Shown here in pieces: positions 3,088 to 36,007 of a stretch of DNA of 39,834 nucleotides. The notes under the pieces are model-generated. The model ran no database searches. It saw nothing but the letters and a program-made list of their open reading frames with translations, and had not been told where the DNA came from. The translations under genes were made by a program, and so were the position numbers. Each line of letters begins with the position of its first letter. Positions within the stretch are counted from its first letter, which is position 1. This DNA is from a virus (taxonomy: Duplodnaviria > Heunggongvirae > Uroviricota > Caudoviricetes). The stretch lies in IMG/VR virus record IMGVR_UViG_2563366858_000008. One strand, given 5' to 3'.

Positions 3088-3190
3088 AAAGACCACCGTT
3101 TAATGTGCATGAAGCCCCACTTAGTTAGTGAAATAACACACATATTAAACCATATATGAATCACATTTAAACGGATAACTCTTCACGAAA

Positions 3191-3205
3191 TTACCCTATA
3201 GGTGA
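3191..3205. promoter_or_regulatory. Operator-like inverted repeat TTACCCTATAGGTGA (1 mismatch to TTACC-N5-GGTAA) upstream of the acetyltransferase gene
   Basis: 37 bp upstream of ATG 3242 in AT-rich promoter region. Confidence 0.4.
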
Positions 3206-7444: not shown

Positions 7445-7600
7445 GTTAAATCTCCAGATAGTCGCAGCACCCGTTGCGCCGCATATCTGGTTATTCTATT
7501 ACCTGAAAAACCATATATGGATGGAAAGAGTGTTAATGTGAGCAGATATTACCTTTCAGGTGATTCGCAAAACGTGCTGGATAGCAAACAAATTATCTGC

Positions 7601-7620
7601 TACTGTATAAATATACAGTT
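7601..7620 (+). promoter_or_regulatory. LexA (SOS) box
   Basis: TACTGTATAAATATACAGTT matches CTGT-(A/T)8-ACAG; lies 20 bp upstream of the moron start codon. Confidence 0.75.
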
Positions 7621-7639
7621 ATTGCATGGAGAAGATAAG

Positions 7640-7897
7640 ATGCAGCAGTATCACTATCCACTGAAAGAGGGATTTACCGAAAGGATTCACACGCCGGGAG
7701 GCGTCAGGTCACTGGTGGAAGGATCGCACTTGATGAAATTACTCCGGGATCTCGATAAGGATGGATTTAATGTCGATGGCCCACTTGCCGAACTGACTGC
7801 ACTGATTAACTACGTCACCAGCTCACAGATGTCTATGCAGGATCTGCAAACACATCTCGACTATTGTGCCGAACAATTACGAAAACAAACCCGGTAA
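7640..7897 (+). CDS. Small SOS-regulated moron protein, unknown function (candidate antirepressor)
   Basis: GGAGAAG RBS 5 nt before ATG 7640; 85 aa; the track's longer ORF from 7517 would contain the LexA box. Confidence 0.6.
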   Translation: MQQYHYPLKEGFTERIHTPGGVRSLVEGSHLMKLLRDLDKDGFNVDGPLAELTALINYVTSSQMSMQDLQTHLDYCAEQLRKQTR

Positions 7898-24345: not shown

Positions 24346-24413
24346 ATCAATGACTCCGTACGCAATTAAATTATTACCAATTTAACCACATATGATTTAT
24401 TTATCGTAGATAG

Positions 24414-24435: not shown

Positions 24436-24450
24436 TTACCTTTAAGGTAA
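24436..24450. promoter_or_regulatory. Operator-like inverted repeat TTACCTTTAAGGTAA (perfect)
   Basis: Perfect TTACC-N5-GGTAA in the noncoding region upstream of the tRNA. Confidence 0.6.
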
Positions 24451-26990: not shown

Positions 26991-27583
26991 TGATTGCCAT
27001 CCTGACGTTCTTTCAGTCTCTTCCTGGCTGCCGCTATGCGATCAGCAATTGTCACATTCACATTAACATCCAGGCGTTCTTTGAACGCGTTGACATCAAC
27101 ATGCTTACCAATCAGCTCAAGGTTCTTCACCTTGTCAGGCCATTTAATTTTTTTGAGGATTGTCTCTATCGAATCCTCGTTCATGTTCATGATGGTCGAT
27201 GACAGATCAAAGCCACTAAGCGTAGTGCGCCAGATTTTCGGCCACTCACGGATTGGTTTAAGGCTCCCATCGTCGTTGAGGATATCGATCACGTCCATCT
27301 GGTCGATCTCCACCAGGCGCATGAGAACGTAATCAGCACTGACGCGCATTCGTTTGTTGCGCTCCTCCATCAACTCGGCAATCCGTTTTTGAATGCGTAC
27401 ATCGCGCATCATGACACTGGCTTTAACTGCCGCTGTATTTGGGGAGAACCCTGCGTTAATCGCTGCCTGAGTCTGGTTTTCAGGCGTTTTGATGTATGAC
27501 TGGCAATAAGCCTCCTGCATTGCTGTGAGCGGCTTAAATTGCGTTGATTTGCGTTTATAGGTTTTAGGTTCAGCAGGCATCAT
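26987..27583 (-). CDS. Terminase small subunit
   Basis: Start MMPAEPK at ATG 27583 (the track's N-terminal extension to 27661 crosses a terminator and operator repeats); motif QEAYCQSYIKT...AAINAGFS typical of small subunits. Confidence 0.75.
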   Translation of the reverse strand: MMPAEPKTYKRKSTQFKPLTAMQEAYCQSYIKTPENQTQAAINAGFSPNTAAVKASVMMRDVRIQKRIAELMEERNKRMRVSADYVLMRLVEIDQMDVIDILNDDGSLKPIREWPKIWRTTLSGFDLSSTIMNMNEDSIETILKKIKWPDKVKNLELIGKHVDVNAFKERLDVNVNVTIADRIAAARKRLKERQDGNQ

Positions 27584-27597
27584 AACCACCGTGGTAA
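27583..27597. promoter_or_regulatory. Operator-like repeat TAACCACCGTGGTAA (1 mismatch), overlapping terS start
   Basis: Adjacent to the perfect copy at 27601; 18 bp centre-to-centre. Confidence 0.45.
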
Positions 27598-27600
27598 TAG

Positions 27601-27615
27601 TTACCGTTGTGGTAA
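27601..27615. promoter_or_regulatory. Operator-like inverted repeat TTACCGTTGTGGTAA (perfect)
   Basis: Between the late-leader terminator and the terS start codon. Confidence 0.6.
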
Positions 27616-27622
27616 TAGTACC

Positions 27623-27652
27623 ATGCAAAATAAAGCCGCCATAGTTGGCGGC
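27623..27652 (-). terminator. Intrinsic terminator immediately upstream of the terminase genes (tR'-like)
   Basis: GCCGCC-aactat-GGCGGC followed by TTTATTTTG on the minus strand. Confidence 0.65.
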
Positions 27653-31083: not shown

Positions 31084-31428
31084 TCAGAACTCTTCGATGT
31101 TCCAGCCACCACCTGCTTTCTTTGGTTTAACCGTTACCCCGATGATTCGGAACGGATACTGATCTGCGGCGACTTTGGTTTTCACCCTGGCGTCGTCGGT
31201 CCAGAAACCTTTCACTTCGTGCAGTTCCATCTCGCCGGTGGCGAGCATCACAGCGAAATCGGGCGTATAGAACGTGTTGTCAGCTAACCGCAGCTTGATA
31301 CCCTCGAATCGATACCAGGCGATTTCCCCTGCACGTTTACGCTGCTCAAGGTGCTGGCAATACACAGATTCTGTTTTGTTCATCTGGCCTGTTTTGAGTC
31401 GACCAAGAGCCTGTATCTGTTTTCTCAT
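31084..31428 (-). CDS. DUF1064-type nin-region protein
   Basis: GAGGT RBS 5 nt before ATG 31428; 114 aa; family assignment from memory. Confidence 0.5.
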   Translation of the reverse strand: MRKQIQALGRLKTGQMNKTESVYCQHLEQRKRAGEIAWYRFEGIKLRLADNTFYTPDFAVMLATGEMELHEVKGFWTDDARVKTKVAADQYPFRIIGVTVKPKKAGGGWNIEEF

Positions 31429-31431
31429 GAT

Positions 31432-31446
31432 TTACCTCTAAGGTAA
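31432..31446. promoter_or_regulatory. Operator-like inverted repeat TTACCTCTAAGGTAA (perfect)
   Basis: Overlaps RBS/leader of the 31084..31428 gene. Confidence 0.6.
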
Positions 31447-31474
31447 TTAAAAACCACATAAGACACGAAATCAA
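31446..31474 (-). promoter_or_regulatory. Candidate sigma70 promoter for the nin-like operon
   Basis: Minus strand TTGATT, 17-bp spacer, TTTAAT; flanked by operator-like repeats at 31432 and 31494. Confidence 0.4.
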
Positions 31475-31493
31475 TAGAGCTTAGAATATTTTA

Positions 31494-31508
31494 TTACCCG
31501 ACAGGTAA
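31494..31508. promoter_or_regulatory. Operator-like inverted repeat TTACCCGACAGGTAA (perfect)
   Basis: Just downstream (minus strand) of the terminator-like hairpin after the P-like gene. Confidence 0.6.
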
Positions 31509-31520
31509 TTGTTGAGACGT

Positions 31521-31540
31521 AAAAAAATGCGCTATCGCGC
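31521..31540 (-). terminator. Weak terminator-like hairpin after the P-like gene (tR2-like position)
   Basis: GCGC-gata-GCGC followed by T7 on the minus strand; stem is short. Confidence 0.35.
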
Positions 31541-31545
31541 TGGTA

Positions 31546-32331
31546 TTACTTGATAAATCCTGACGCCTTTCCCCGCCTGTATTCCTCCATCAGCCACTGC
31601 GCCGGTGTTATTCCCCCCAGGGTGGCGGCGTTAGGCATGCACCCGAAACTTCGCCCTGGCGGGTGGTAAACGTCTCTCCCTGTGTCCGGAGGCGTACTCA
31701 TGGGTTCTGGCTTTGCCTGTATGCTGATCACCGGATCGGGTATCTGCTGCCCGGAAGCCACCTTTTTCGCCCAATCATCGAGCAGCCTGCGCGCGTGTTT
31801 CTCAACCTCAATCTCGCTAAGCTGGCGCTGATACATTGCACGGCGGGTATCACATACGACCCAGTACATAACCGGATGCCGCCACGGGAATCTTTCGGGA
31901 CCACCAGGATATAAACTTTTTTCCTTGCTGTACCGGTGAAACTCCGCCATCACATCGTCAATGGTGACGCCAAGAACCATCTTGCTGTCTTTACACCACT
32001 TGATAAATTGCCCTGGCGACGGCCAGAACGGAGATTCACTGGCGCGGGCGTGGCGCATACCAGCAGAAACCTGTTCACGGGTTCGGATCCCCCCTTCGGC
32101 AAACGCAGCAATCCACTGCTGTTTTGCAGCAACTTCCTGCTCTGGCGTCTTCAGGTTGGTTACTACTGCCGCCGGAAACAGTTGTTTCAGCTGTTTGAAA
32201 AGGGCATCAACAAGCCTCTCTGCTGACATGTTCACCACATTGTCATTGTTGACGTACTGATGCTCATAACCTGACATGCGAGAAAGGGCTTCTCCGTCAC
32301 GGTTTTGTATCGCGGTAAAAACGTTGTTCAC
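31546..32331 (-). CDS. Replication protein P-like (helicase loader)
   Basis: Segment FPAAVVTNL...WIAAFAEGGIRTREQVSAGMRHARASESPFWPSPGQFIKWCK aligns with lambda P (recalled); GGAGGA RBS before GTG 32331, overlapping the O-like stop (GTGA). Confidence 0.8.
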   Translation of the reverse strand: MNNVFTAIQNRDGEALSRMSGYEHQYVNNDNVVNMSAERLVDALFKQLKQLFPAAVVTNLKTPEQEVAAKQQWIAAFAEGGIRTREQVSAGMRHARASESPFWPSPGQFIKWCKDSKMVLGVTIDDVMAEFHRYSKEKSLYPGGPERFPWRHPVMYWVVCDTRRAMYQRQLSEIEVEKHARRLLDDWAKKVASGQQIPDPVISIQAKPEPMSTPPDTGRDVYHPPGRSFGCMPNAATLGGITPAQWLMEEYRRGKASGFIK

Positions 32332-33167
32332 AAGAAATCCTCCCACGCTTCAGGGCTGTTCCAGTGCGGAACGTTGTTATCAGGTAATGTTGATTGCTTC
32401 TGTCTGCTAATCTGCAGCCGCCTTCCCAGCTTCTGCTCCCACTGTGCCTGATGGTATGCCTTACCCTCAGCCATCCAGTAAATTCTGAACTCTGCAAGTT
32501 CCTGTGCCGTTGGCAGACTGTCCAGGTAGATCCCCTGCAATGAGCTTTTCCGAAGAAAGTCATCTGATGGTTGCCATTGTTCATGCATGACAAATTTGCC
32601 TAATTGCCCTGGCCCACCAGGAGGAACAAAGTTATTCATCACGGCGTTGTTTGCGCCGGGGTCATGAGGCACAGAATCCCCGGTTTTTGTCCTGCTCTCC
32701 CTCTCTTGGTTAAATGACTGGTTATATGACTGGTTCTGGATCCCGTTTTTGGGATCATTCAACATCCCGTTTTTGGGATCATTCAACATCCCGTTTTTGG
32801 GATCATTCAACATCCCGTTTTTGGGTATATTCCCGTTTTCGGGAACATTACCGTTTTCGGGTTCATTACGTCCTTCTAGGTTGCCTTTAATGTTCCCTTT
32901 TTTGGTTATATTAAGAGAGAAAACCCGCACTCTTTTCGTCGCTCCCTTTCTCTCTCCGGTATCTGAAATAAGCCCCATTTTCATGAGCGATATAAGCCCG
33001 GCCTGCACGGTTTTTTTATTCAGGCAAGTGTCTTTAACGAGGCGTTCTATGCTGGGGTAGCAGAGGTTATATTCATCGGCTCTGTCAGCCATCGAGAGCA
33101 GTATGAGCTTTAATGACGAGCTACCTGGATCTGTCTCCCAGGCCCAATCTGTTGCATGTCTGCTCAT
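32328..33167 (-). CDS. Replication initiator O-like, with internal origin iterons
   Basis: N-terminal helix-turn-helix-like region; central NGMLNDPK x3 repeat encoded by DNA iterons; directly upstream of P-like gene. Confidence 0.7.
   Translation of the reverse strand: MSRHATDWAWETDPGSSSLKLILLSMADRADEYNLCYPSIERLVKDTCLNKKTVQAGLISLMKMGLISDTGERKGATKRVRVFSLNITKKGNIKGNLEGRNEPENGNVPENGNIPKNGMLNDPKNGMLNDPKNGMLNDPKNGIQNQSYNQSFNQERESRTKTGDSVPHDPGANNAVMNNFVPPGGPGQLGKFVMHEQWQPSDDFLRKSSLQGIYLDSLPTAQELAEFRIYWMAEGKAYHQAQWEQKLGRRLQISRQKQSTLPDNNVPHWNSPEAWEDFL
32741..32866. repeat. Origin-like iteron array inside the O-like gene
   Basis: Three exact 24-bp units TCCCGTTTTTGGGATCATTCAACA (32741, 32765, 32789) then three degenerate 18-bp units, each with a CCCG-T(4-5)-GGG dyad; AT-rich stretch follows. 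Confidence 0.75.
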
Positions 33168-33182
33168 GATTAATCTCCGCTA

Positions 33183-33383
33183 TCAGCTTGAGTGTTGTGG
33201 GGAGGAATTAATCATGATCTGCTTAATCTCTGCCCTGATGCGACGGTTTGATTCCATGGTGCACTCAACACAGTGTCCGTTGTAAACCCAGCGTTCACTG
33301 TCATGTCCGTGCTTACATGGTTTTCCGGTGTAGTAGCGTTTAAGTCCGCGCTTTGCGGCATCAATACGTGTAATGATTTCCAT
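33183..33383 (-). CDS. Small zinc-binding protein
   Basis: Start MEIITRIDAAKRG at ATG 33383; CKHGH...CVEC motif; 66 aa. Confidence 0.45.
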   Translation of the reverse strand: MEIITRIDAAKRGLKRYYTGKPCKHGHDSERWVYNGHCVECTMESNRRIRAEIKQIMINSSPQHSS

Positions 33384-33463
33384 GGTAAGCCCTGTTATTA
33401 GTATTGGGATTACGGTTATTTTGTGCTGACACAAAAAAAAGATCAACCAGATTTGGTTTTTTG

Positions 33464-33478
33464 TTACCTTTTAGGTAC
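33464..33478. promoter_or_regulatory. Operator-like repeat TTACCTTTTAGGTAC (1 mismatch)
   Basis: Between the terminator after the cro-like gene and the next gene. Confidence 0.45.
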
Positions 33479-33533: not shown

Positions 33534-33764
33534 TCATGAGTAGAAGAAGTACGCCAGTTCTGCTTTTGAGCGCAGCCATCGTCTTGTTTTACAGGCTTTA
33601 AAAAGCCCATTCATCAATACCTTACCTGGCATTTTGCGCTTACCTGTTAAGTGAGTCTGGATATAGTGACTCGTCGTTCCGGCTTCCTGTGCGAAGGCTT
33701 CACGCTCATCCGGAGTAAGTGCAAGCCAGTGTTTTTTGAAATCGAAATGTCCGTTATCGCTCAT
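33534..33764 (-). CDS. Cro-like small regulator
   Basis: 76 aa; divergent from the repressor gene across the three-site operator region. Confidence 0.5.
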   Translation of the reverse strand: MSDNGHFDFKKHWLALTPDEREAFAQEAGTTSHYIQTHLTGKRKMPGKVLMNGLFKACKTRRWLRSKAELAYFFYS

Positions 33765-33800: not shown

Positions 33801-33815
33801 TCACCCATAAGGTAA
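33801..33815. promoter_or_regulatory. Operator site TCACCCATAAGGTAA (1 mismatch)
   Basis: First of three sites in the cro/cI intergenic region. Confidence 0.55.
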
Positions 33816-33831
33816 CAAAAATCAAGGATAG

Positions 33832-33846
33832 TTACCCATGGGGTGC
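33832..33846. promoter_or_regulatory. Operator site TTACCCATGGGGTGC (2 mismatches)
   Basis: Middle site; 17 bp centre-to-centre from the next. Confidence 0.45.
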
Positions 33847-33848
33847 AT

Positions 33849-33863
33849 TTACCTGTTGGGTAA
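33849..33863. promoter_or_regulatory. Operator site TTACCTGTTGGGTAA (perfect)
   Basis: Third site of the tripartite operator. Confidence 0.65.
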
Positions 33864-33918: not shown

Positions 33919-34503
33919 ATGAAAAGTATCCAGGACGTCCGCAGGCAAAATCTCAACGACTTGATCGACCGTGAATTCAATGGTGTTCAGACGCGGATGG
34001 CAGAAAAACTTGGAACTCAGGCAAATCTGGTAAACCGCTGGGCTCTTGGCAAGAAGGTTATCGGCGACCAGGTTGCGCGAAAAATTGAAGCTGCCGCCAA
34101 TAAACCCCGTAACTGGCTTGATATCGATCGCTCGCTTTCTCAGGAAGGTTTTCAGCCTGTCGGCCCAAGCGACATTGGTCAGCTGGCGGCTCACAACCTG
34201 GAACGCTGGATGAGCGAAAGCCGCGACCTTTCAACACAGGGAAAACTTCACCGCGCATCCGGCGTCGCCCAGGTGACAATCAGCCGCCTGTTAAACAATG
34301 AGGTCAGCGTTTCCATTTCCACCCTGGAGAATGTTGCATCCGCATTCGGGCGTCACGGCTATGAATTACTGATTCACCCGCACGACCCTGCGACTATCAA
34401 CTATGACCGCTCGCGCTACGCATTGTTACCCGAAACAGAGAAGGCAAAGATCGAAAGTTACATTGAATTTGTCATCAGCCAGAACGAAAAAAACAAACAA
34501 TAA
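33919..34503 (+). CDS. Prophage repressor, tandem HTH (XRE-type), no autocleavage domain (cI-like)
   Basis: Two HTH-like segments (QTRMAEKLGTQANLVNRW and ASGVAQVTISRLL); 194 aa, no room for an S24 peptidase domain; divergent from cro-like gene. Confidence 0.7.
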   Translation: MKSIQDVRRQNLNDLIDREFNGVQTRMAEKLGTQANLVNRWALGKKVIGDQVARKIEAAANKPRNWLDIDRSLSQEGFQPVGPSDIGQLAAHNLERWMSESRDLSTQGKLHRASGVAQVTISRLLNNEVSVSISTLENVASAFGRHGYELLIHPHDPATINYDRSRYALLPETEKAKIESYIEFVISQNEKNKQ

Positions 34504-34523: not shown

Positions 34524-34550
34524 AAGCCGCCTCATGGCGGCTTTTTTATT
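34524..34550 (+). terminator. Intrinsic terminator after the repressor gene
   Basis: AAGCCGCC-tcat-GGCGGCTT followed by TTTTTATT. Confidence 0.75.
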
Positions 34551-34560
34551 GCCAGCAAGA

Positions 34561-34575
34561 TTACCTTATGGGTAA
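34561..34575. promoter_or_regulatory. Operator site TTACCTTATGGGTAA (perfect)
   Basis: Upstream flank of the early-left promoter. Confidence 0.65.
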
Positions 34576-34594
34576 TTTTTTTAACTCATATCTA

Positions 34595-34622
34595 TTGACA
34601 TCAAACCAGATACGCATAATCA
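34595..34622 (+). promoter_or_regulatory. Early-left promoter (PL-like)
   Basis: TTGACA, 16-bp spacer, TAATCA; bracketed by operator sites at 34561 and 34623. Confidence 0.55.
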
Positions 34623-34637
34623 TTACCTCAACGGTAA
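34623..34637. promoter_or_regulatory. Operator site TTACCTCAACGGTAA (perfect)
   Basis: Immediately after the -10; would cover the transcription start. Confidence 0.65.
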
Positions 34638-35111: not shown

Positions 35112-36007
35112 TGCGGAACGCTGGAATCATGGATAGAACAAAATACATCGGAGGAAGCGATGTTGCAGGGATTCTTGGAATTAGCCCATGGCGCACCCCG
35201 CTTGAGGTTTATCTGGATAAGGTCCAGCCACGTGTCAAACCAGTAGACCCAAGCAAGCAGAAAGTTTTCACGCGTGGCCAGCGTATGGAGCCATACGTAA
35301 TAGACCTGCTTTCTGAGGAAACAGGGATGGAAATCGTTCATCGCGGAAACCGCTATATCCACCGTGATTACGATTTTATTGCAGCTGAGATCGATGCAGA
35401 AGCAGCGTCAGGCGAGAACATTGAGATCAAAACAGTTAGTCCGTTCAAAGCCAAAGAATGGGGAGAAATCCAGACAGATGCAATTCCTGTGCATTACACG
35501 GCCCAGGCCATGCACGGGTTGATGGTTACAAACAAACAGGTATGCGTTTTCGGTGTGCTTATCGGTGGCGACGACTTCCGAATCTATCGGGTTGAGCGTG
35601 ATGAAGAAACTATCCAGGCGATCTTAGAAAAAGAAATCGCTTTCTGGGACCGAGTGAAAAATCTTAACCCGCCGGAAGCTACCAGCGTAAGCGATGTATC
35701 GCTGATGTTTGAGAAAGATGCCGGGACAAGTATCGAGGCTGACGGAAAGGCACTCTCACTATTCAACGATCTACGAGACATGAAGTCACGCAGAAAATCA
35801 CTGGAAGAAGAAATAGCTATATCAGAAGAGAAGCTGAAGATGTACATGCAAGAGCACTCAGTCCTGACCCTGGACGGAAAGCCGCTCTGCACATGGAAAT
35901 CTCAGATCAGCAACAGATTCGACCAGAAGCTATTCCAGTCAGTACACCCTGAGTTATTCGAAAAATTCAAAACAACAACGACACAACGCGTCTTCAGAAT
36001 GAAGTAA
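35108..36007 (+). CDS. YqaJ-like recombination exonuclease (lambda Exo-type)
   Basis: N-terminal YIGGSDVAGILGISPWRTPLEVY motif typical of YqaJ-type exonucleases; immediately upstream of RecT. Confidence 0.8.
   Translation: MMRNAGIMDRTKYIGGSDVAGILGISPWRTPLEVYLDKVQPRVKPVDPSKQKVFTRGQRMEPYVIDLLSEETGMEIVHRGNRYIHRDYDFIAAEIDAEAASGENIEIKTVSPFKAKEWGEIQTDAIPVHYTAQAMHGLMVTNKQVCVFGVLIGGDDFRIYRVERDEETIQAILEKEIAFWDRVKNLNPPEATSVSDVSLMFEKDAGTSIEADGKALSLFNDLRDMKSRRKSLEEEIAISEEKLKMYMQEHSVLTLDGKPLCTWKSQISNRFDQKLFQSVHPELFEKFKTTTTQRVFRMK

Follow-up and report, generated by a model that had tools for sequence, protein, structure and literature searches.

In phage lambda, each early promoter is served by three adjacent operators, cleavage of the CI repressor is aided by RecA, and the nin genes are reached by N antitermination and not from a second repressed promoter; we know of no lambda operators beyond the immunity region. 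The Rep-Ant-LexA switch of phage SPC32H was reportedly described by Kim and Ryu in 2013 and by Kim et al. in 2016, with structures said to be PDB 5D50 and 5D4Z. According to two papers citing that work, Rep binds DNA as a tetramer, one tetramer being sufficient for repression (PMC9638917), and Ant binds two Rep dimers, breaking the tetramer (PMC9986798). The C1 repressor of phage P1, which an antirepressor inactivates, directly controls lytic promoters at many places in the genome through 22 dispersed operators (PMC8546580); the stoperators of L5-type mycobacteriophages comprise many repressor sites genome-wide, beyond the immunity region (PMC9283540); and in N15 the CB repressor acts at the repA promoter, which lies outside the cB-cro intergenic region and is overlapped by two OL operators (PMC4488713). 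The RefSeq record of phage epsilon15 (NC_004775.2) carries a 'protein_bind repressor' annotation at 35906-35922, as well as further repressor sites at OL and upstream of TerS, gp3 and the tailspike gene, all of these annotations being predictions. In this work we describe a cassette of a related prophage (positions 31432-31540) whose distal dyad aligns with this annotated epsilon15 site, and which is probably a Rep-repressed sigma-70 promoter that restarts transcription of a second early unit, with a Rep tetramer likely bridging its two operators.

The window analysed here is a stretch of 39,834 nucleotides from a virus of the class Caudoviricetes (IMG/VR record IMGVR_UViG_2563366858_000008), and all coordinates refer to it unless stated otherwise. 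It represents a phiV10/epsilon15-like temperate podophage of the genus Uetakevirus, the type member of which is epsilon15, and 1.1 kb around the cassette shares 97-98% identity with Escherichia phages phiv142-3, phiV10, ZX5 and their relatives. E. coli O157, Salmonella, Klebsiella and Citrobacter commonly carry prophages of the epsilon15/phiV10 type. The cassette lies between the stop codon of a lambda-P-like replication gene (31548-31546) and the start of a gene encoding a DUF1064 protein (Table 1). Upstream of the P-like gene is an O-like gene encoding DnaT and HTH_36 domains (Pfam), while 3' of the DUF1064 gene lie Eae-like, Ead/Ea22-like and DUF551 genes as well as small ones (Pfam Ead_Ea22 and DUF551; ORF list). 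No late regulator or antiterminator was found by Pfam among the neighbouring genes. The interior of the O-like gene also contains three tandem 24-bp direct repeats at 32750-32817 (TGGGATCATTCAACATCCCGTTTT), which look like origin iterons by analogy with lambda O.

Table 1. Coordinates of the cassette, the immunity region and related features in the window
Feature	Position	Strand	Details
Single operator copy	3191-3205		before lysis genes, divergent from O-antigen acetylase gene
Single operator copy	7549-7563		before tailspike gene, divergent from ant
LexA box CTGTATAAATATACAG and ant	7603..7897	+	box 7603-7618, near-consensus; ant 7640-7897
Single operator copy	24436-24450		before gp3/portal genes
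Two adjacent operator copies	27583-27615		just 5' of small terminase start, after terminator 27652-27635
Terminator closing nin-like unit	27652-27635		terminator scanner
DUF1064 protein gene, 114 aa	31084..31428	-	Pfam DUF1064, E 8e-7; first gene of unit
Proximal dyad TTACCTCTAAGGTAA	31432-31446	.	TTACCT-CTA-AGGTAA, perfect 6+6, 3-bp centre; candidate Rep operator
-10-like hexamer TTTAAT	31451-31446	-	17-bp spacer from -35
-35 hexamer TTGATT	31474-31469	-	inside CTATTGA context, also present at PL
19-bp A+T-rich stretch TAAAATATTCTAAGCTCTA	31475..31493	-	between distal operator and -35
Distal dyad TTACCCGACAGGTAA	31494-31508	.	TTACC-CGACA-GGTAA, perfect 5+5, 5-bp centre; candidate Rep operator
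Weak terminator-like hairpin after P-like gene	31521..31540	-	GCGC-GATA-GCGC 31540-31529, A, T7 31527-31521
Lambda-P-like replication gene	31546..32346	-	Pfam Phage_lambda_P, E 1.5e-56; last gene of upstream PR operon
Single operator copy	33464-33478		after terminator following cro-like gene
Cro-like gene, small product	33534-33764		in Cro position
PR	33818-33790		TTGTTA-17-TATTAT; promoter scanner
OR operators, cro-like gene to rep	33801..33863	.	33801-33815 (1 mismatch), 33832-33846 (2 mismatches), 33849-33863 (exact)
Repressor gene rep	33919..34503	+	full-length match to SPC32H Rep, PDB 5D50, E 4e-42, residues 1-190
Early-left promoter PL, bracketed	34561..34637	+	operators 34561-34575 and 34623-34637; TTGACA 34595-34600; AATCAT 34618-34623

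The two perfect dyads that the initial annotation had placed around a promoter are both present in the sequence as described, and they carry the same operator as the immunity region, where the pattern TTACC-N5-GGTAA recurs exactly at both PL sites and at one OR site, and with one mismatch at another (Table 1). When this pattern (TTACCNNNNNGGTAA) was scored with up to one mismatch, 13 matches were found in the window against 0.62 expected. Furthermore, when every perfect 5+5 dyad in the window was counted without bias, TTACC-N5-GGTAA ranked first, with 7 copies compared to 3 for the next best, and the same dyad was also top-ranked in epsilon15, in BUCT711 and in six prophages of other genera. 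The motif is short, and the dyads could in principle be chance palindromes of no function; however, none of 100 shuffled sequences reached the observed count of 13, the arms are invariant amid hypervariable neighbours, and their spacing is kept in seven genera, which leaves chance with a negligible probability. By virtue of the shared dyad and its conservation, the two dyads after the P-like gene are presumed to be operators of Rep.

The proximal dyad ends 3 nt from the 5' edge of the ATG of the DUF1064 gene and contains its Shine-Dalgarno sequence GAGG (31438-31435). A palindrome in this position might act in RNA instead of DNA, as a hairpin in a read-through transcript that hides the Shine-Dalgarno sequence, since its 6-bp stem takes in the AGG of GAGG. 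However, the predicted hairpin amounts to just -4.2 kcal/mol (z = -0.09), which does not exceed the stability of shuffled sequence, and the same dyad occurs at the distal site, at OR and at OL, where no such role is possible. We consider action in RNA to be highly improbable, and take the dyad as a presumed protein-binding site in what follows.

The presumed binder is the product of rep. In addition to its full-length match to SPC32H Rep, the protein yielded only HTH domains in Pfam, an S24 peptidase domain not being found, and NLVNRW, the helix predicted to recognise DNA, does not change even in relatives of only 42% identity. A search for heteroimmune relatives among the full-length Rep homologs of the phage collection, IMG/VR and GTDB genomes returned none, NLVNRW and the TTACC/GGTAA arms always being kept together, and no such dyads accompanied those matches from Hydrogenovibrio, Thiomicrospira and Paraburkholderia that were confined to the DNA-binding domain. 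At the other end of the switch, a LexA box stands directly 5' of an 85-aa ORF whose product is closely similar to Ant of SPC32H, a phage in which ant is an annotated gene; the tailspike gene with its operator is oriented divergently from this box/ant pair. Because a Rep homolog, an Ant homolog and a LexA box are all present, the window carries a switch of the SPC32H type, in which the LexA box and ant presumably form the input for induction, freeing all operators of Rep. A lambda-type tripartite operator with a RecA-cleavable CI was ruled out as a description of the cassette, which has two sites 62 bp apart and is paired with a Rep for which Pfam gives HTH domains only.

Cro and the repressor act on shared operators in switches of the lambda type, and the small cro-like gene of the window occupies the Cro position. 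The two sites might therefore serve mainly the Cro-like protein in lytic growth, damping early transcription, with control by Rep in the lysogen being secondary. No evidence links this protein to the dyad, the cro-like product has no Pfam hit, and the Cro protein of PY54 binds a single operator only (PMC4488713), which we count against such a role. It appears rather improbable that the sites exist mainly for Cro, and because binding by Rep would not be excluded if they did, a contribution of Cro would supplement control by Rep and not replace it.

The resemblance to the early-left promoter that the initial annotation had drawn, a succession of terminator, operator, promoter, operator and gene, holds to the base. 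At PL the order is operator, 19 bp, TTGACA, 17 bp and AATCAT, which abuts the second operator; after the replication genes it is operator, 19 bp, TTGATT, 17 bp and TTTAAT, which abuts the second operator in the same way, the final T of TTTAAT being the first T of the proximal dyad. The distance between operator centres is 62 bp in both, and that from the -35 hexamer to the second operator is 22 bp in both; likewise, a terminator is followed after about 12 bp by the first operator, and the -35 hexamer is surrounded by the context CTATTGA. The promoter scanner picked out PL independently, at 10 of 12 consensus matches. That two promoters have an identical bracket is consistent with the tetrameric, two-site binding reported for SPC32H Rep, and the bracket therefore offers a natural substrate for testing the 'noncanonical' model of binding.

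The hexamers TTGATT and TTTAAT and their exact 17-bp spacing were also confirmed in the sequence, on the minus strand as proposed. Together they match the consensus at 9 of 12 positions, and since the -10 hexamer has T in place of A at its second position, the element is absent from the list of the consensus scanner. In relatives this hexamer reads TTAAAT, and in Klebsiella relatives TATAAA or ATAAAT. The 19-bp A+T-rich stretch that separates the distal operator from the -35 hexamer possibly resembles an UP element, and its AAAATAT (alignment columns A57-T63) is almost invariant across genera. Transcription from this element would be predicted to start near 31439, which places the proximal dyad at about -7 to +8 and the centre of the distal dyad at about -62. 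The predicted leader is tight, at only about 11 nt with the Shine-Dalgarno sequence at +2 to +5; no usable transcript data for Uetakevirus emerged from a literature search. A scanner-listed alternative, TCAACA-16-TAAAAT (31515-31488), places its -35 hexamer in a hypervariable linker and was for this reason discarded as the main promoter.

The terminator-like hairpin reported 3' of the P-like gene was correctly described but is weak. Its stem consists of just 4 G-C pairs, and as the pattern scanner requires 5 pairs the hairpin is absent from its list. With 4 additional outer pairs counted in, the segment 31515-31550 folds at -8.4 kcal/mol (z = -2.0), whereas the terminator that follows rep reaches -15.4 kcal/mol (z = -4.8). 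In the phiV10 record the hairpin is annotated as a putative terminator, and it is the only element of the cassette annotated there.

To examine the conservation of the cassette, 74 loci encoding a 99-100% identical Rep were extracted and 64 distinct sequences compared; because extraction was anchored only in flanking coding sequence, it involved no selection on the dyads themselves. Among these close relatives three of the four dyad arms are intact in 64/64 sequences and the fourth, an arm of the proximal dyad, in 63/64; TTGATT is intact in 64/64 and TTTAAT in 63/64. The centre of the distal dyad, on the other hand, occurs as 26 different 5-mers in the 64 sequences (1.17 bits per column), compared to 0.56 bits at the centre of the proximal dyad and 0.13 bits at third codon positions in the genes on either side. 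Invariant arms around a variable centre are the pattern expected of half-sites contacted by a protein and a centre that is not, and the retention of the hexamers is what selection on a promoter would be expected to produce. Conservation at PL follows the same pattern.

Across a wider range of taxa the whole cassette was found in 11 lineages from seven genera, which include the phages epsilon15, SPC32H, BUCT554 (Enterobacter) and BUCT711 (Klebsiella), together with prophages of Superficieibacter, Erwinia dacicola, K. pneumoniae, Citrobacter werkmanii, C. braakii and Scandinavium, with an operator spacing of 61-62 bp throughout. The terminator stems, the T7 run, the four dyad arms, CTATTGA and the AAT of the -10 hexamer are invariant in 11/11 lineages, while the terminator loops vary, and the proximal dyad lies 2-5 nt 5' of the ATG in all 11. 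The first gene after the cassette encodes a DUF1064 protein in 7 lineages and an unrelated RuvC-like resolvase in the other 4; as two unrelated first genes follow it, the cassette belongs to the post-replication position and not to the gene downstream. Homology between lineages was also seen to break at the start codon (window 31426-31431; epsilon15 35984-35990), which marks the cassette as a module junction.

These data bear on the possibility that the dyads are true Rep sites without a working promoter between them, the nin-like genes being expressed by read-through from PR and Rep serving as a roadblock or as a stoperator-like silencing clamp. The 4-bp stem of the terminator, the lack of an A at the second position of the -10 hexamer, the missing scanner entry, and the almost complete lack of a leader between the proximal dyad and the ATG would all agree with such an arrangement. 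However, TTGATT, CTATTGA and the AAT of the -10 hexamer are invariant across the 64 relatives and the 11 lineages while adjacent bases vary freely, the hexamers occupy the exact positions relative to the operators that they have at PL, and in Klebsiella relatives the -10 hexamer takes the forms given above. Moreover, a roadblock at the cassette would have little to block, because PR is already off in the lysogen. We regard the absence of a working promoter as unlikely, although, as the terminator is weak, read-through from PR could still supply much of the nin-like transcription.

On the preferred reading, that of a Rep-repressed promoter, we infer from the anatomy of the locus the following course of events. 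Transcription from PR through the cro-like, O-like and P-like genes would be at least partly stopped by the weak terminator at 31540-31521, and the TTGATT-17-TTTAAT promoter, recognised by host sigma-70, would restart rightward (minus-strand) transcription at the predicted start. The restarted unit would comprise the DUF1064, Eae, Ead and DUF551 nin-like genes and extend to the terminator at 27652-27635. In the lysogen, Rep would be expected to occupy the two dyads of 15 bp, whose centres lie near +1 and -62, and to shut the promoter: at the proximal site through steric occlusion of the -10 hexamer and the start, and at the distal site from a position adjoining the A+T-rich, UP-like stretch. 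Were one Rep tetramer to hold both sites, the promoter would be enclosed in a 62-bp loop, as at PL. Such a loop is short; as the tetramer offers two pairs of DNA-binding domains, bridging by a single tetramer is both the simplest model and the most likely one. Induction would follow the course described for SPC32H, in which LexA cleavage allows Ant to be made and Ant takes the Rep tetramer apart. Upon release of Rep the promoter would fire at the same time as PL, PR and the remaining units that have an operator. A cassette of this kind would explain how the nin-like genes are expressed past a terminator without an N-like antiterminator.

Compared to the systems introduced above, the cassette most resembles those of epsilon15 and SPC32H. 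Epsilon15, of the same genus, has the dyad ATTACC-N5-GGTAAT (15-17 bp) in the same position after the replication gene, and its annotated site at 35906-35922 aligns with the distal dyad at 31494-31508; it differs in having a RuvC-like resolvase downstream in place of DUF1064. The epsilon15 record holds no annotation of the proximal site (35969-35983), of a promoter, or of the 62-bp bracket shared with PL. SPC32H has the same cassette, and its Rep is matched over the full length by that of the window, whose Ant is also closely similar and is encoded just 3' of a LexA box. With lambda OL/OR and CI the cassette would share the occlusion of early promoters by a repressor and the cooperative binding of a higher oligomer to separated sites, whereas Rep, unlike the RecA-cleaved CI, is without an S24 peptidase domain. 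P1 is a functional analogue only, with an asymmetric 17-mer operator and unrelated proteins, and the repA promoter of N15 is the counterpart of an early-left promoter, which the window also has, and not of a third, downstream unit. Stoperators of the kind found in mycobacteriophage cluster A were ruled out, as these are asymmetric, orientation-dependent, monomer-bound sites that stop elongation in transcribed regions, whereas the sites of the window are symmetric dyads that bracket promoter hexamers.

The initial annotation had also held that a second repressor-controlled early promoter beyond the immunity region falls outside the lambda paradigm. The arrangement does depart from the lambda layout, but its novelty was overstated, as it is normal for the epsilon15-like group. 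Novelty is low because a repressor site is already annotated in the epsilon15 record at the counterpart of the distal site, and because dispersed operators have long been known from P1 and mycobacteriophages. The post-replication cassette is an ordinary and well-supported feature of the epsilon15/phiV10 group and not a new type of control, and the general picture of phage repression is left unchanged. What the analysis provides is a concrete and testable map of how a prophage of the epsilon15/phiV10 type silences genes outside its immunity region. A side observation from the epsilon15 genome concerns three further dyad copies at 33341-33402, between rep and the cro-like gene; these, like the proximal copy at 35969-35983, are exact or 1-mismatch copies of the dyad annotated elsewhere in the RefSeq record and are unannotated there.

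More copies of the operator head almost every other lytic unit of the window (Table 1), and those before the terminase, gp3/portal and tailspike genes correspond to annotated epsilon15 repressor sites. Just 5' of the terminase operators, TGGTACTAT (27616-27625) reads as an extended -10 element (TGn followed by TACTAT) with no -35 hexamer, and is possibly a late promoter; the final T of TACTAT is the first T of the terminase operator, an abutment of the kind seen at PL and at the post-replication cassette. A second motif, ATRTGGTTT, has 4 hits on the minus (lytic) strand, at 31451-31459, 24383-24391, 7508-7516 and 3147-3155, always 32-44 bp downstream of an operator and just 5' of an A+T-rich, -10-like hexamer. 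Similar copies occur at the same four places in epsilon15, the one at the tailspike gene being off by one base, while the looser form ATNTGGTTW also matches many sites in coding regions. ATRTGGTTT may be part of an extended -10 element (TGn), as in TGGTACTAT, or the target of some factor.

The distribution of operators raises the possibility, which we advance tentatively and with some doubt, that the whole lytic programme is run without an antitermination cascade. Each lytic unit would then have its own operator (PL, PR, the unit after the cro terminator, the post-replication unit, terminase, gp3/portal, tailspike and lysis), 62-bp Rep micro-loops would form at PL and at the cassette, and one antirepressor would release them all simultaneously. 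If such a scheme is true, the variability of operator centres and of terminator-operator linkers would reflect loop tuning or diversification.

This variability was observed in prophages that are otherwise 97-100% identical, and involves the centre of the distal operator together with the 11-12 bp linker from the T-run of the terminator to the operator (31499-31520). At the distal centre the entropy is about 9 times that of third codon positions, and free drift seems too slow to be its cause; candidates include tuning of operator strength, recombination at module junctions and a locally raised mutation rate. The same hypervariability was found at PL (34550-34570), while the OR region is, by contrast, nearly invariant.
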